IMG/VR virus record: IMGVR_UViG_3300025137_000017
Span: 1 to 64,000 of that record
Source of the DNA: a virus
Direction: 5' to 3' (one strand)
DNA: 64,000 nt
Part shown: one piece after another, positions 37,453 to 41,817 of the stretch
Layout: the number at the start of each line of letters is the position of its first letter
Position numbering within the stretch: the first letter of the stretch is position 1
Position numbers and translations under genes: made by a program
Notes under the pieces: generated by a model
Told to the model about the DNA's origin: nothing
The model's database searches: none
What the model saw: only the letters and a program-made list of their open reading frames with translations

Positions 37453-39214
37453 AATCAAGAATATTACAGTAAAAAACTTCATGAGTGTGGGTAATGTCAC
37501 CCAAGCGATACAATTTGATGATCAAGGACTAACACTAGTCCTAGGTAATAACGTAGACTTAGGTGGAGACGGTTCTCGTAACGGAACAGGCAAAACTACA
37601 ATAGTTAATGCCTTAAGTTATGCACTATATGGAAATGCTCTGTATAATATTAAGAAGGATAATCTAGTTAACAAGACCAATAACAAACAAATGTTAGTAA
37701 CTGTTGACTTTGAAATGAATGGACAGAGTTATCGTATTGAACGAGGTAGAAAACCAAACTTATTCAAGTATATAGTCAATGATGTGGACAATGCATCAAC
37801 AGATGAGATGCAGGGAGAAGGTCGTGAGAGTCAAGCAGTAATTGAACGTACATTAGGTATGAGTCATACAATGTTTAAACATGTTGTGGCACTTAATACA
37901 TATACAGAACCTTTCTTAAGTATGAGAGCTAATGATCAACGTGAACTTATTGAACAATTACTTGGTATTACTAAACTTAGTGAGAAAGCTGACTTACTAA
38001 AAGATCTTGTGAAGCAGAACAAAGATAGTATTCAAGAAGAAACATATAAAATTAGAGGTACTGAAGAAGCTAATGAACGTATTGGTAGCAGTATTAAAGA
38101 TCTAGAACGCAGGCAGTCAATATGGTTTACTAGACGAGATAAAGATGTTACAGATCTCCAACAGGAACTATCAGATCTTGAGAAAGTTAATATTGATGCT
38201 GAATTACAGGCACATATTAACTTTACAGAGTTTAATACTCGTAGAACACAGATAGATACAGTAAATGGCGAGATTGCACGTTTACAAACTACTATTGAAC
38301 GTGAGCAGAAGCGTATGGATAAGGCACAAAAGGACCTGGATCATACTCTAGATCATAAATGTTATGCATGTGGTCAGGATCTACATGATGAAGCACATGA
38401 AAAGATTGTAGCAACTAAGACAGAAGCGGTTGCAGATTCAGTAAGACACATTACTTCTGACAGCGAAAAGATAAATGATTATAAGAGTGCCTTAACGGAT
38501 ATTGGTGAACTAGGCAAAGCACCTGTACTGCATTATAACACAGTACAAGAAGCATATGAACACCAAAACAAGATGAGTGCCGCAGGTACAGAGATTAAAC
38601 GTAAGCAAGAAGAACTAGATCCATATGAGGAGCAAATTGATACACTTCGCAATACTGGTTTACAAGAAATAGACTGGAGCGAAGTCAATAGACTCACAGA
38701 GCTTAAAGATCACCAGGACTTCCTATTAAAGTTGCTTACAAACAAAGACAGTTTTATCCGTAAAAGGATTATTGAACAAAACCTACAGTTTATGAATAGT
38801 AGGTTAGAGTATTATATTACTCGTTTGGGATTACCACATGAAGTGCAGTTCCAATCGGATCTAACAGTTAGTATTATACAACTAGGACAGGATTTAGACT
38901 TTGACAATCTATCTCGTGGTGAACGTAACAGACTTATATTAGGTTTAAGTTGGGCGTTCAGAGATGTGTTTGAGAGTATGAATCATCCTATTAACCTAAT
39001 ATGTATTGATGAACTTGTTGATAGTGGTATGGATACTATTGGTGTTGAGAGTGCTCTAGGAGTACTTAAAAAGATGGAGCGTGAACGTAATAAAAATATT
39101 TTGCTTATTTCTCATAGGGACGAACTTGTTGGCCGTGTTAGTAGTGTACTACAAGTCACAAAGGAAAATGGATTTACAACGTTCAGTACAGAAGTGGAAA
39201 TAGTTGACGCATAA
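37445..39214 (+). CDS. recombination ATPase subunit (gp46/Rad50/SbcC-like)
   Basis: Walker A NGTGKTT, CYACGQ zinc hook, LSRGE signature, Walker B ICIDE, ISH. Confidence 0.95.
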   Translation: MLRIKNITVKNFMSVGNVTQAIQFDDQGLTLVLGNNVDLGGDGSRNGTGKTTIVNALSYALYGNALYNIKKDNLVNKTNNKQMLVTVDFEMNGQSYRIERGRKPNLFKYIVNDVDNASTDEMQGEGRESQAVIERTLGMSHTMFKHVVALNTYTEPFLSMRANDQRELIEQLLGITKLSEKADLLKDLVKQNKDSIQEETYKIRGTEEANERIGSSIKDLERRQSIWFTRRDKDVTDLQQELSDLEKVNIDAELQAHINFTEFNTRRTQIDTVNGEIARLQTTIEREQKRMDKAQKDLDHTLDHKCYACGQDLHDEAHEKIVATKTEAVADSVRHITSDSEKINDYKSALTDIGELGKAPVLHYNTVQEAYEHQNKMSAAGTEIKRKQEELDPYEEQIDTLRNTGLQEIDWSEVNRLTELKDHQDFLLKLLTNKDSFIRKRIIEQNLQFMNSRLEYYITRLGLPHEVQFQSDLTVSIIQLGQDLDFDNLSRGERNRLILGLSWAFRDVFESMNHPINLICIDELVDSGMDTIGVESALGVLKKMERERNKNILLISHRDELVGRVSSVLQVTKENGFTTFSTEVEIVDA

Positions 39215-39393
39215 TGATTGATGATGATGACGATGCTGAAGGTTTCATTAGTTTGGATGACTTCAGCAACAAAGGATACAAGCAAGACGAAGAAGTTTTC
39301 ACCACAACACCTGATTATGGAATACTAGAAGTTAAGAAAGAACTAGGTGTGGATATCATACAAGAGATAAAGAAGACGTTTGAAGATGAATGA
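39214..39393 (+). CDS. small acidic hypothetical protein (59 aa; not in the ORF track)
   Basis: TAATG coupling to gp46; reads MIDDDDDAEGF...FEDE*; overlaps the next start. Confidence 0.65.
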   Translation: MIDDDDDAEGFISLDDFSNKGYKQDEEVFTTTPDYGILEVKKELGVDIIQEIKKTFEDE

Positions 39394-39880
39394 ATATGTT
39401 ATTCCTTTAACTGATTTCTTGTGGAATAGACAGGACGTATTTGATATACAGGATAACCATCCTGACTATAAAGCTAATCCTCTCTGGACTAAACTAGGAA
39501 TTGATACACCAACAGATGCATTGATGTGGGATCTAATGATATATCATTCGGACTTACGAAAATTAGAAGCACGGTTTAACTGTGTAACTGATAGTAAGTT
39601 CACTAAAATACTAGCTGGTGGACACATGCCAGCACATATTGATCCACGTAGGACTGCGGTAGTTATGTTTCCATTAACAGAATATCCTAGTCCTATAACA
39701 TATTATGAAAATGAGAAAGAAATCTTTACACATCAATATGAATGTGTTACTGTTATAAATGCAAAGATACAACATGCTGTACCAAACAACCACAGGGACA
39801 GAATTTTCTTCCAAGTTAAATTAGATTTGCCTTGGGAAGATGTTGTATCGATGCATAGTGAAGGAACATTATATGACTAA
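39386..39880 (+). CDS. 2OG-Fe(II) oxygenase-like protein
   Basis: MPAHID, IQHAV and DRIFFQ; same layout as 19..525. Confidence 0.7.
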   Translation: MNEYVIPLTDFLWNRQDVFDIQDNHPDYKANPLWTKLGIDTPTDALMWDLMIYHSDLRKLEARFNCVTDSKFTKILAGGHMPAHIDPRRTAVVMFPLTEYPSPITYYENEKEIFTHQYECVTVINAKIQHAVPNNHRDRIFFQVKLDLPWEDVVSMHSEGTLYD

Positions 39881-40460
39881 CTACCCGTTCTTTTACTTTT
39901 ACGATTTGGAATTTGACGCAGATAAAATTTTAGAATTCGTCAACACTATTCCACAAAACCAATGGATAGGCCCACATATTGGAAATTATGATCCTGATGT
40001 TAAGGTTGAACCACATAGAGCAGACAACAAATTATGGACTGCTAATAATAGAGATACAGACTTCACAGCATGTGAAGAAATAAACAAGATTGCGAAATAC
40101 TTCGATACTTACTATACGAGTATGATGATTAAGAAAAGTATAAATGGATTCAATGCTCCGTTTCATCCTCTGATGCAAAATGCAGACTACGATAAAAAAC
40201 ATAACATTGTCCGTACATTTGATATCATTGTTCCTATACAAGGTGGCTTTATGGAAAGCCCGCTCGAAGCTATTGATACAAAGACAGGTGAACATTATTC
40301 ATTAGTACCTAAGGGTTTAGCTTTTATGGTACCAAATGATCCTAGTTGGCATTATAGTTGGTTAGAAACTATATACGATTTTAGATATACTCTTCATCTT
40401 CGTGGTGTAATGCCACAAACATATGAGAAGATAAAGGAACTATATCTTAAAAATGGGTGA
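39873..40460 (+). CDS. cupin/2OG-oxygenase-like protein with an atypical metal motif
   Basis: APFHP, DIIVPI, WHYS and RYTLHL follow the DSBH layout, but there is no HxD. Confidence 0.45.
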   Translation: MTNYPFFYFYDLEFDADKILEFVNTIPQNQWIGPHIGNYDPDVKVEPHRADNKLWTANNRDTDFTACEEINKIAKYFDTYYTSMMIKKSINGFNAPFHPLMQNADYDKKHNIVRTFDIIVPIQGGFMESPLEAIDTKTGEHYSLVPKGLAFMVPNDPSWHYSWLETIYDFRYTLHLRGVMPQTYEKIKELYLKNG

Positions 40461-40917
40461 TTGGAAGTATAAAAGACAGATTGTCGAGAGTCTACCGGAA
40501 GACTGTGTCGGCTTTGTATACATCATCACTAATACTATTACAGGCAAAAAGTACATTGGCAAAAAACTGGCAAAATTCGCAAAAACAAAATATAAAATGC
40601 ACACACAAAAAAATGGCAAAAAAGTTAGAAAAAAGATAAGATCAAAAATAGACTCAGACTGGCAAGAATATTATGGCTCCTCAAAGGCACTAACAGCAGA
40701 TATAGAAAACTTAGGCAAAGACAAATTTAAAAGAGAGATATTGTTCTATTGTGCCTCAAAGGCAGAATGCTCATACGTTGAAGCAAGAGAACAATTCACA
40801 CACAGGGTACTTGAAAGTGATGATTACTATAATGGTCACATACAAGTTCGTGTTCATGGCTCACATATACTAACAGAACAACTCTTAAACAATCCCACAG
40901 ACACAAAGTCAAACTAA
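40453..40917 (+). CDS. short GIY-YIG (Seg-like) endonuclease, catalytic domain only
   Basis: GFVY-x10-YIG, YYGSS, FKREIL, Glu in SYVEAREQ and Asn in YYNG; basic insertion after YIG. Confidence 0.85.
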   Translation: MGDWKYKRQIVESLPEDCVGFVYIITNTITGKKYIGKKLAKFAKTKYKMHTQKNGKKVRKKIRSKIDSDWQEYYGSSKALTADIENLGKDKFKREILFYCASKAECSYVEAREQFTHRVLESDDYYNGHIQVRVHGSHILTEQLLNNPTDTKSN

Positions 40918-41255
40918 TATAGGCAAAGAATGCTCCGATTGGTCGTGATAGCTCGACCCACCTTGAACGCATGGGAACGCATGTTTGGATCTGGTGTAGC
41001 AAAGTGTCACTGCGTTGGTTTGACAAACCGAAATGATCAAGCTCTTCTGACAATTGAAACTTGAGGGTAGCACAAAGTCGTTGATATGGCAATGTGTGTT
41101 CCTGCGTTATTAAGCAGTAAGTAAAAAGGTACCGCGTAACCGCCTTTTCCTAGCGTTAATTAGGTTTTACTATATCGATGTGTTGACTTTGACGGGAAAA
41201 GTCGATTTTGCATTTGGCCTTATCAGGCTAAGTGTGAATGACAGATCAAGGAAAA
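40918..41255 (+). ncRNA. putative ~330-nt structured non-coding RNA of unknown family
   Basis: no plus-strand ORF; at least eight stems, several with G-U pairs, inside a long-range helix (CCTT 40961-64 plus GATCTG 40988-93 pairing with CAGATCAAGG 41242-51). Confidence 0.7.
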
Positions 41256-41261
41256 GACGTA

Positions 41262-41269
41262 CATAAATA
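41262..41269 (+). promoter_or_regulatory. late promoter (CATAAATA)
   Basis: TAAATA core immediately 3' of the structured region. Confidence 0.55.
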
Positions 41270-41291
41270 CACTATAATATAAACCATATAG

Positions 41292-41359
41292 ATATTAGTA
41301 ATATTAATCGAAATACCGTTAGGTATTGAAGATTAGATGCCGTATGGCATCACTAATAT
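41292..41359. repeat. nested perfect inverted repeats (branched hairpin/cruciform)
   Basis: ATATTAGT/ACTAATAT enclosing AATACC-GTTA-GGTATT and GATGCC-GTAT-GGCATC. Confidence 0.8.
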
Positions 41360-41376
41360 AACAGCAAAGATATATA

Positions 41377-41817
41377 ATGAACTTCGACATATTCAAAATG
41401 AAATTCCTTGAGTGGACAGAGAATGTAATTGAGCAGAAAAAAGAAGATGGTTTTTCTATCTGTCCGTTTGCCAAAAGGGCACGTCTAGACAATAAAATAC
41501 AGTTTATAGATTGTACAATAGCTACCAGTGAGTTGCTTACATTTAACAAAGAACGATACGAAATAGGTATTGCTTGGTTGGGTGATTCAGTAGACATGTC
41601 TATCATTGATGAAGTTCTAGAGCGTTATAAGGCAGAAAATCCTGACCTATTATACTTTACAAGTACAACAGATTCAGGATACTTTGCTAAGAACTTTACT
41701 AATTGTGTGTTTATTCAATTAAGAGGTGATATAGATATGCGGAGGGAACAGTTACACAAAACCAAGTACTATGACAGTTGGCCAGAGCATTACTATAAAA
41801 TAATAACCGGGCACTAG
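41377..41817 (+). CDS. hypothetical protein (DUF1415-like CPFA motif)
   Basis: W.ENVIE...ICPFAK; C-terminal YYDSW. Confidence 0.6.
   Translation: MNFDIFKMKFLEWTENVIEQKKEDGFSICPFAKRARLDNKIQFIDCTIATSELLTFNKERYEIGIAWLGDSVDMSIIDEVLERYKAENPDLLYFTSTTDSGYFAKNFTNCVFIQLRGDIDMRREQLHKTKYYDSWPEHYYKIITGH

Follow-up and report, generated by a model that had tools for sequence, protein, structure and literature searches.

A pseudoknotted RNA with a twice-written word, predicted behind a minimal GIY-YIG nuclease gene in an uncultured marine T4-like myovirus

Introduction

The first 64,000 nucleotides (nt) of the IMG/VR virus record IMGVR_UViG_3300025137_000017, a 135.6-kb viral record of an uncultured marine T4-like myovirus, were analysed as one stretch (the window), in which the gene for a small GIY-YIG nuclease is followed by a gap (40918-41376) without a long plus-strand open reading frame (ORF). 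The question raised by this locus is what the gap encodes, and whether its product works together with the nuclease. The original prediction placed a large structured RNA directly behind the nuclease gene, and proposed that both may form a ribonucleoprotein of the IscB/TnpB kind. Comparative analysis shows that window 40933-41262 (plus strand) indeed encodes a real, pseudoknotted non-coding RNA of about 320 nt, in which one short word is written twice, while the evidence argues against the nuclease being an RNA-guided effector of the IscB/TnpB type. The two elements in question are the following:

40453..40917, plus strand: stand-alone GIY-YIG nuclease gene, 154 amino acids (aa), SegE-type catalytic domain only (ORF, Pfam, PHROG, AlphaFold2)
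40933..41262, plus strand: structured non-coding RNA of ~320-330 nt, ends approximate (nhmmer, covariation, RNA-library contig)

Comparative evidence for the RNA and its strand

The signal obtained by folding the window region as a single sequence is modest (z = -2.15 for the plus strand, with 3 of 100 shuffles folding as well; z = -1.37 for the minus strand, with 9 of 100), and the weight therefore rests on comparative evidence. Already in the first alignment of relatives found with nhmmer, invariant blocks are parted by compensatory changes. The stems listed in the original prediction, every one of which proved complementary in a script check, were joined with one kissing loop and scored on a cross-clade MAFFT alignment of 22 distinct relatives. 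In this alignment 78.5% of the cells pair, compared with 71.5 +/- 0.5 when shuffled (none of 500 shuffles attains this level) and 35-43% in controls with slid partners, and both sides are changed in 34 of the 86 pairs, so that the covariation downstream of nuclease homologues which had been proposed as a check has been found. A family-wide alignment of 63 sequences, in which the three alignable helices were scored, gives 88.2% of cells paired against 79.7 +/- 0.6 when shuffled and 32-59% when slid. The elements of the window RNA are listed here:

40941..40958, plus strand: 5' hairpin GGUCG/CGACC; 76.9% of cells paired in 22 sequences
40961..40993, plus strand: 5' side of the closing helix in two strands, CCUU (40961-64) and GAUCUG (40988-93), pairing with 41242-41251; weak in the 22-sequence alignment
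40969-84, plus strand: hairpin between the 5' strands of the closing helix; 57% paired in the 22-sequence alignment
41037..41064, plus strand: hairpin UCAAG/CUUGA with a conserved 18-nt loop (CUCUUCUGACAAUUGAAA); 100% paired, double changes in 4 of 5 pairs
41070..41097, plus strand: two-part hairpin GCACA..GUCGU / AUGGC..UGUGU; 84% and 78% of cells paired, double changes in 4 and 2 pairs
41102..41117, plus strand: hairpin CUGC/GCAG, whose loop 41106-41110 (GUUAU) kisses 41136-41140 (GUAAC)
41120..41171, plus strand: three-way junction with outer helix AGUAA/UUACU; 55% paired in the 22-sequence alignment
41125-47, plus strand: junction helix AAAGGU/GCCUUU with the near-invariant loop UACCGCGUAACCG; 99.7% paired in 63 sequences, double changes in 4 of 6 pairs
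41149-64, plus strand: junction helix CCUA/UAGG; 100% paired, double changes in 3 of 4 pairs
41183..41205, plus strand: hairpin UUGACUUU/AAAGUCGA, which bears the first copy of the twin word; 66% paired in the 22-sequence alignment, 5 of 7 pairs changed on both sides
41195..41201, plus strand: twin word, copy 1, GGAAAAG
41207..41238, plus strand: long hairpin with a core (UUGGCCUU..AGGCUAAGUGUGA) invariant within the window clade; 99.2% paired, changes all of the G-C to G-U type
41242..41251, plus strand: 3' strand of the closing helix (CAGAUCAAGG)
41250..41256, plus strand: twin word, copy 2, GGAAAAG

Five helices are strongly backed in the 22-sequence alignment (41037-41/41060-64, 41070-97, 41125-30/41142-47, 41149-52/41161-64 and 41209-20/41225-36); the weak ones are the outer junction helix (41120-24/41167-71), the hairpins 40969-84 and 41183-205 and, above all, the inner closing helix (40988-93/41242-47, 38% paired). 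The last of these is nevertheless compensatory when read from the alignment, being GAUCUG/CAGAUC in the window and GAUGUC/GACAUC in the clade of locus L084. The loops of the 40969-84 hairpin are of the GNRA type in relatives (GUGA, GAAA, GAGA), and the long hairpin 41207-41238 is, as originally described, a 14-base-pair stem with exactly four G-U pairs.

The kissing loop, which the first reading of the sequence had missed, joins the loop of the 41102-17 hairpin to the near-invariant loop of the 41125-47 helix. It emerged from mutual information among 86 distinct rows, in which pair 41108/41138 is UA in 62 and CG in 21, and pair 41109/41137 is GC in 50 and AU in 24. In the 63-sequence alignment the kissing helix is 99.5% paired, with one pair present as UA in 42 sequences and as CG in 21.

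The RNA is read from the plus strand, since the invariant G-U and U-G pairs (22 of 22 sequences in the smaller alignment; 63 of 63 in the larger one at the U-G of 41130/41142) and the many G-C to G-U changes fit only this strand; this agrees with the originally proposed co-orientation with the nuclease gene. A coding region, or a decayed C-terminal domain of the nuclease, was considered and ruled out, because the changes in the stems are compensatory and the insertions and deletions do not come in threes. The claim that no plus-strand ORF lies behind the nuclease gene holds for long ORFs; the gap is not strictly free of short ones, as there is a 44-aa ORF with an ATG start at 40930-41064 (plus strand), and minus-strand ORFs of 98 and 54 aa are present as well.

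Two repeats were noted inside the window RNA. The sequence GAACGCAUG stands twice in tandem (at 40965 and 40975, within 40965-40983), and CUGCGUU also occurs twice (41010-41016 and 41102-41108). AACGCA is fully complementary to UGCGUU, which leaves room for alternative or tertiary pairings. The repeat with AACGCA was seen only in the close relatives of the window (L002, L099).

Distribution of the RNA and its relation to Polynucleobacter-1

Relatives of the nuclease were found in at least 597 viral stretches, 80 of which were kept for analysis. A search with nhmmer using only the intergenic sequence of the window detected the region in 4 of these 80 stretches, while an exact pattern made from the most conserved hairpin (41207-41238) retrieved 29 more viral stretches. 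The iterated nhmmer profile, which aligns to window 40919-41278, detects the RNA in 100 of 110 fetched stretches, corresponding to 96 of 106 distinct records, as four contigs had been fetched twice. Among the ten stretches without a match, two are cut off just behind the gene and one (L049) has an ORF directly behind the gene, followed by the contig end. Six of the seven non-truncated negatives that were re-examined hold a different RNA with the same layout of a twin word, in this case ACAUGAA, which occurs twice at a distance of 55-58 nt. This second RNA type, unrelated in sequence and located behind the same GIY-YIG gene (L005 3415-3830, L011 3418-3900, L037/L039/L040 and L054), is devoid of the GGUACCG..ACCGCC core and ends with ACUC-ACAUGAA, a hairpin and AAUCU-ACAUGAA.

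The window RNA reaches the gathering score of no Rfam family, and at E up to 10 (positions 40300-41500) only chance-level matches to tRNA, mir-4677, CopA and U7 appear. This includes RF01718 (Polynucleobacter-1), a motif with a gathering cut-off of 37 bits, to which the window gives no match even at E up to 10. By contrast, in 6 of 13 loci (L062, L016, L043, L013, L094 and L025) the 5' third of the RNA matches RF01718 with 80-121 bits, and 6 of the 28 related loci scanned match it overall. In these loci, the 141-nt motif begins just behind the stop codon of the GIY-YIG gene and makes up the first third of the same RNA. It is unmatched in 18 other loci, among them L084, L104, L053 and L090, in which the shared 3' domain is clearly present. 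This 3' domain aligns across RNAs with and without the motif in the 63-sequence alignment, with common helices and a common kissing loop, and a single nhmmer profile covers both sorts. The original prediction recognised no known family in the RNA, which holds for the window copy, and the Rfam match that was to speak against the prediction exists in part, as the 5' third of relatives of this RNA.

The orphan motif RF01718 is a fragment of a larger RNA, of which the shared 3' domain of about 200 nt is uncatalogued, and the window RNA is a 5'-reduced member of a family whose other members begin with Polynucleobacter-1. The 5' domain of the window is shorter than RF01718 and lacks the first two hairpins of the motif, and in L003, L020 and L030 the nhmmer matches begin only at profile position 127-145. 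The family therefore combines a shared 3' part with no fewer than three types of 5' domain (that of Rfam, the short one of the window and the one of L003, L020 and L030).

The Polynucleobacter-1 candidate is listed by Weinberg et al. (2010; PMC2864571) for Burkholderiales and for fresh water or estuary. In the Burkholderiales genomes sampled here, RF01718 is found above its cut-off in 3 of 151; one of these three was examined, and its RNA extends into the shared 3' domain. A scan for bacterial hosts with a 14-mer returned 120 stretches, which are taken as chance matches because nhmmer detects the RNA in none of them. When the window region was compared by blastn with GenBank phage records, only a 98-nt piece of the GIY-YIG gene was matched, in Prochlorococcus phage P-SSM3 (HQ337021.1, 68623-68721; 74% identical to the middle of the window gene); this piece falls outside annotated features and may be a gene remnant. 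The RNA of L062 matched no GenBank phage record by blastn, and RF01718 was not matched anywhere in the record of Methylophilales phage Melnitz. Among the papers found on GIY-YIG proteins with structured or noncoding RNA in phages, none deals with this RNA, judging by titles and abstracts.

Two known kinds of RNA were tried and rejected. A tRNA cluster or pseudo-tRNA is suggested only by an RF00005 match of 21.6 bits (cut-off 29, E 0.13) at 40990-41058; ARAGORN finds no tRNA in the window, and relatives such as L084 give no tRNA match at E up to 5. As for a group I intron, no intron family is matched at E up to 10, and the flanking genes differ between loci, with the downstream gene often on the other strand.

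A word written twice in each RNA

In this family a 7-nt word is written twice per RNA, about 55 nt apart; the two copies agree within each RNA, but the word varies from one RNA to another. An exact word of at least 7 nt is common to both sites, namely the loop region of the 41183-205 hairpin and the 3' tail, in 60 of the 63 aligned RNAs, which show 11 different 7-nt cores (for example AGAUAAU, GGAUAAU, GGAUGAU, GGUUAAU and GGUAAAG, in addition to the GGAAAAG of the window). As a control, site 1 and site 2 of RNAs with different words were compared, and the mean longest match was 4.9 nt. A tree of the 63 RNAs from which the word columns had been left out calls for at least 28 changes of the word, while shuffled labels require 34-39 changes (first 10 of 200 shuffles). 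The only link of the word revealed by mutual information is the identity between 41198 and 41253. Such identity within an RNA, together with so many changes among 63 RNAs, represents an unusual covariation and implies a fast co-evolving partner. The conserved 5' element CACUAUCC does not change with the word.

The repeat extends beyond the word, since UGUG..GAC is found upstream of both copies in the window (41180-41193 and 41233-41242), and in the main clade GUGAC is located 17 nt upstream of each copy. The extended form of the word, GGAAAAGNCG, occurs three times in the 135.6-kb record, always inside the RNA, the third occurrence being the reverse complement at 41141-41150.

The word is the only defined hypervariable element of the RNA. 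No long guide-like segment was found when a variable one was looked for as the original prediction had suggested, so that a guide of the IscB/TnpB type, of about 16 nt or more, is missing. With 20 occurrences of GGAAAAG in the 135.6-kb record against about 17 expected, a word of 7-10 nt is too short for addressing a unique site. Moreover, position 1 of the word is tracked by no column of the GIY-YIG alignment (maximum mutual information 0.22, against a permutation 95% level of 0.31). Scarcely any credit is given to the idea that the twin word might be a programmable address, in which the two single-stranded words of 7-10 nt would pair with two complementary copies in a nucleic-acid target (for example a host transcript, a competing phage or the DNA of the phage itself) and recruit the small nuclease encoded upstream. 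Were it correct, lineages would retarget by changing both words together, and the locus would represent an RNA-addressed nuclease system unrelated to CRISPR, IscB or TnpB.

The nuclease and its link with the RNA

The 154-aa protein is a member of the GIY-YIG superfamily by profile and by fold. It matches the Pfam family SegE_GIY-YIG (PF19835) with 1.6e-32 and 112.7 bits (cut-off 25), residues 4-130 being aligned to profile positions 1-123 of 123, and a second domain is absent; the general PF01541 model gives 16.6 bits, below its cut-off of 22.6. It also matches phrog_447 (2.5e-37), a family of stand-alone proteins of about 148 aa. In the AlphaFold2 model, built on 27 relatives (mean predicted local distance difference test score, pLDDT, 86.1), the tail 136-154 is disordered. 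A C-terminal DNA-binding module of the Seg/I-TevI kind was thus not found, in agreement with the earlier description of a catalytic domain only. The same description pointed out 29 residues following YIG (KKLAKFAKTKYKMHTQKNGKKVRKKIRSK) with 12 Lys and 2 Arg; both counts were confirmed, and in the model this stretch forms a long basic beta-hairpin with strands 41-51 and 57-67.

When the model was compared with 48,161 solved chains, the four best structural matches all proved to be GIY-YIG enzymes:

I-TevI catalytic domain (1LN0): Z 8.5, 82 residues aligned
5-hydroxymethylcytosine-specific restriction enzyme (9U75): Z 7.0
UvrC N-domain (1YCZ): Z 5.3
T4 EndoII (2WSH): Z 5.1, 84 residues aligned

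Foldseek places 1LN0 first and 1MK0 eighth (probabilities 0.91 and 0.94, yet with E of 0.14-0.24), and a sequence search against the chains of solved structures yielded no match at E up to 1. Y23, Y34, G36, E110 and N127 are invariant across the 27 relatives; Y23, Y34, E110 and N127 are presumably the counterparts of the catalytic residues of I-TevI (Tyr of GIY, Tyr of YIG, Glu and Asn).

In the window, the slot between a 589-aa Rad50/SbcC-like gp46 homologue upstream (phrog_77, 8e-104) and a baseplate-hub gene downstream on the opposite strand (PF12322, phrog_150) is occupied by the nuclease gene and the RNA. The order gp46, variable small ORFs, GIY-YIG gene, RNA and hub is kept in nearly all loci. 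A sample anchored on the hub, in which loci were chosen by the hub protein and blind to both RNA and nuclease, returned 18 loci, one of which ends 235 nt past the hub gene. In the 17 judgeable ones, the RNA is always accompanied by an upstream nuclease gene, which encodes a GIY-YIG protein in 16 and a PD-(D/E)XK protein in one; the pairing of RNA and nuclease gene is clearly not random. The 29 stretches anchored on the hairpin pattern agree: a GIY-YIG gene ends 286-432 nt before the pattern in 24, a 181-aa PD-(D/E)XK protein (PF24608, 2e-25) is encoded in the same place in L090, L106 and L091 (cut), and two are too short to judge, one of them being the same contig as L053, which has the GIY-YIG gene. 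A nuclease gene is therefore present in 27 of 27 judgeable pattern-anchored stretches, and the PD-(D/E)XK substitution is known from four loci (L090, L106, L091 and the hub-anchored L245).

Neither the fold of the nuclease nor its orientation or distance is fixed. Apart from the exchange for PD-(D/E)XK, the GIY-YIG gene (plus) and the RNA (minus) stand head to head in L046 (1107-1948), where the RNA cannot be co-transcribed with the nuclease gene because it keeps the orientation of gp46. In one clade, an ORF of 332-356 aa is inserted between gene and RNA (L004 3434-4447, L030 536-1606, L050 2135-3133); extra ORFs, 277-356 aa long, follow the GIY-YIG gene in some loci, and no Pfam or PHROG family was matched by any of them.

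A possible explanation is that the nuclease genes of this slot are free-standing homing endonuclease genes, the RNA gene being their landing pad and target, with an unrelated function of its own, and the adjacency being parasitic. Two unrelated nuclease folds taking the same slot, the inversion in L046 with the RNA keeping the gp46 orientation, and the variable extra ORFs between gp46 and the RNA are all in keeping with this explanation. So is the identity of the GIY-YIG proteins, which in most loci amounts to 55-80%, higher than in the flanking hub (about 30-36%) or in gp46 (about 49-57%), and which fits horizontal spread. A relative with 53% identity is moreover found at another classic site, after nrdB, in phage Melnitz, and a precedent is provided by T4 SegB, described as a homing enzyme in the tRNA gene region of T4 (PMC2330249). 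Nevertheless, occupancy is complete in both samples, so that sporadic presence of the Seg/I-TevI type was not seen, the protein lacks the DNA-binding domain that gives Seg enzymes and I-TevI their site specificity, and the invariance of the catalytic-domain residues fits long-term selection and not the decay of a fixed selfish gene. Taken together, homing is regarded as an unlikely explanation that still deserves some weight, as the strongest rival of the scaffold proposed below.

In the original prediction, the same adjacency and the shared orientation pointed to a possible ribonucleoprotein of the RNA with the minimal GIY-YIG protein, the nuclease being guided or regulated by the RNA. The missing DNA-binding domain and the long basic beta-hairpin (41-67 in the model) would suit this proposal, and a fast-changing word could set specificity. 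However, the same RNA is found alongside the 181-aa PD-(D/E)XK nuclease, and protein and RNA each occur without the other. In Melnitz, only 148 nt separate the nuclease relative from the next ORF, which leaves no room for the RNA, and the gp55-47-46 region of this phage is densely coding. Conversely, a bacterial copy of the RNA (L254; G050:C4:63000-82000), from a 1.9-Mb Burkholderiales genome, has no GIY-YIG relative in the 19 kb examined. The basic segment, put forward as an RNA-binding feature, turns out to be a trait of the whole family, as it lies inside the PF19835 match and is conserved in all aligned relatives, including that of Melnitz with no RNA beside it. Relatives of the protein are present in 315 phage records, mostly of cyanophages, while the RNAs of the window and of L062 were not matched there by blastn. 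The word is short, occurs in the record at about the expected frequency and is untracked by the protein at its first position, and T4 EndoII exemplifies a minimal GIY-YIG enzyme that works with no added domain. These data, with the inversion in L046, make a ribonucleoprotein of the IscB/TnpB kind very improbable.

The surroundings of the bacterial copy (about 4700-16700 of L254) look like a mobile defence island. The RNA of L254 lies between two small ORFs without a family; beyond them are a ZorC-like gene (EH_Signature) and a ZorD-like gene (SNF2-helicase/Mrr-nuclease), and on the other side of the RNA a 223-aa ORF is followed by a tyrosine-integrase gene. None of the neighbouring ORFs (137, 80 and 223 aa) has a match in Pfam or PHROG, and no usable Atlas match was obtained for those of 223 and 137 aa.

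Transcription and proposed role

Four metatranscriptome runs from three studies, labelled as marine, seawater or viral metagenomes, contain contigs on the region; no habitat claim is based on the runs with a small share. The contigs in question are:

40452-41193: 887-nt RNA-library contig, bridging gene and RNA
40666-41014: 347-nt RNA-library contig
40933-41193 exactly: 261-nt RNA-library contig

In the four runs, no contig covers 39800-40415 or 41263-42100, nor, save for a bin edge, extends past 41193, an absence that carries no weight. Neither a sigma-70-like promoter nor an intrinsic terminator was found between gene and RNA, and counts are no higher than in shuffles. TATAAATA shows no enrichment (8.7 copies would be expected in the window, which has 3, none of them beside the RNA). 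Given the contigs that span both and the lack of a promoter or terminator between them, co-transcription of gene and RNA is proposed.

The contigs of two studies stop at 41193, two bases ahead of the first copy of the word, with no loose ends. This stop may be at most a weak hint of an RNA end, as it may equally mark a polymorphic site. It bears on a further explanation, according to which the RNA is cut at or beside both words, through self-cleavage or by an enzyme (the neighbouring nuclease or an RNase of the host), and a segment of about 55 nt is released or circularised; the identity of the words would then be that of a single processing site present in duplicate. The repeat being longer than the word (UGUG..GAC upstream of both copies) also favours cutting. 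Still, a word-to-word joint is not seen in the four RNA runs, no family of self-cleaving ribozymes is matched at E up to 10, and GIY-YIG enzymes are known as DNA nucleases, so that very little credence is given to processing at the words.

The preferred explanation, held with a probability of roughly 0.5, is that the RNA is an autonomous scaffold at the end of the gp46-nuclease transcript, whose two identical words dock a fast-evolving partner. The RNA would form the tail of an early or middle transcript shared with the nuclease gene, and would then act on its own as a folded scaffold that offers the two words to one partner, either to two copies of it or to two of its sites. Because this partner must change quickly, a conserved host factor is less likely than a nucleic acid or protein encoded by the phage. 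The nuclease gene is a constant neighbour, whose product may act in the same process.

Several observations weigh against this scaffold explanation. The strict adjacency of a nuclease gene in 17 of 17 loci is not explained by an RNA that is merely independent. No complementary column for the word was detected inside the RNA by mutual information, and no consistent reverse-complement copy of the word was found within loci outside the window clade, in which the exact reverse complement has a consistent site in 3 loci (offset -110). In this clade alone, CGCCUUUUCC (41141-41150) is complementary to the word, and an internal switch is therefore possible there. One GIY-YIG column is associated with word position 5 (mutual information 0.39, permutations 0.30), which probably reflects shared descent. 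Finally, the evidence for expression consists of assembled RNA-library contigs, which possibly derive from contaminating DNA.

The position of the element offers another explanation, in which it acts in cis on DNA metabolism, for example as a structured primer or R-loop RNA of a replication origin or as a recombination hotspot, with the nuclease processing the RNA. Its fixed place directly behind the recombination-nuclease genes gp47/gp46, at the border of two gene blocks, and the nuclease gene that always adjoins it are suggestive in this respect. The bacterial copy, on the other hand, is situated in an island near integrase and Zorya-like genes and not at a phage origin, and the kissing loop and three-way junction seem to exceed the needs of known primer RNAs; an action in cis is accordingly seen as highly improbable.

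Comparison with known systems

The closest catalogued relative is Polynucleobacter-1, which provides the 5' third in 6 of the 28 related loci and one Burkholderiales copy of which has the 3' domain. The RF01718 model itself is without the ~200-nt 3' domain, the kissing loop, the twin word and the link with a nuclease. What had been catalogued so far was a 141-nt orphan motif (2010), about one third of the length of the full RNA, and the variant of the window escapes even that model. Other large ornate RNAs associated with phages are GOLLD and ROOL, both of them Rfam families. These are likewise large multi-helix RNAs of phages, whereas the RNA described here has no Rfam match in the window, is smaller, and is distinguished by its twin word and nuclease neighbour.

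IscB and TnpB, which have nucleases of the RuvC/HNH fold and use omega-RNAs, resemble this locus in that a compact nuclease gene adjoins a large structured RNA on the same strand. They differ from it in several respects, as the fold is here GIY-YIG or PD-(D/E)XK, neither a long guide segment nor transposon ends are present, and protein and RNA are each found without the other. A small nuclease gene next to a structured RNA thus need not mean an RNA-guided system.

T4 SegB offers a different likeness, that of a GIY-YIG gene beside stable RNA genes in a T4-type phage. SegB, however, has a DNA-binding part and is sporadic among relatives, while occupancy is complete in the family described here. 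The T4 tRNA cluster also contains the stable RNAs C and D, which have no known role. The catalytic domain of I-TevI and T4 EndoII share the fold of the window protein, which resembles EndoII (a tetramer) in having no appended DNA-binding domain and differs from both in a 27-residue basic beta-hairpin insertion in the model.

Since every judgeable locus has the RNA behind a nuclease gene, and relatives of the nuclease are encoded in so many viral stretches, the RNA is common and probably important in abundant uncultured phages of marine and fresh water. Identifying the partner of the word would assign a function to a widespread phage RNA and explain the nuclease gene that accompanies it.

Genomic surroundings

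Between gp46 and the GIY-YIG gene, the window holds three ORFs of 59, 166 and 206 aa (39214-40460) that match no Pfam or PHROG family; as relatives hold different ORFs there, this slot is variable. On the other side, an AT-rich spacer (41263-41376) separates the RNA from the next gene, at 41377. The spacer is not conserved along with the RNA in distant relatives, and in the window it contains two small hairpins:

near 41305-41318: spacer hairpin 1, AUACC-GUU-AGGUAU
near 41338-41353: spacer hairpin 2, GAUGCC-GUAU-GGCAUC

Elsewhere in the viral record, beyond the window, ARAGORN predicts four tRNA genes (Thr-TGT, Leu-TAG, Trp-CCA and Arg-ACG) at 120817-121937.

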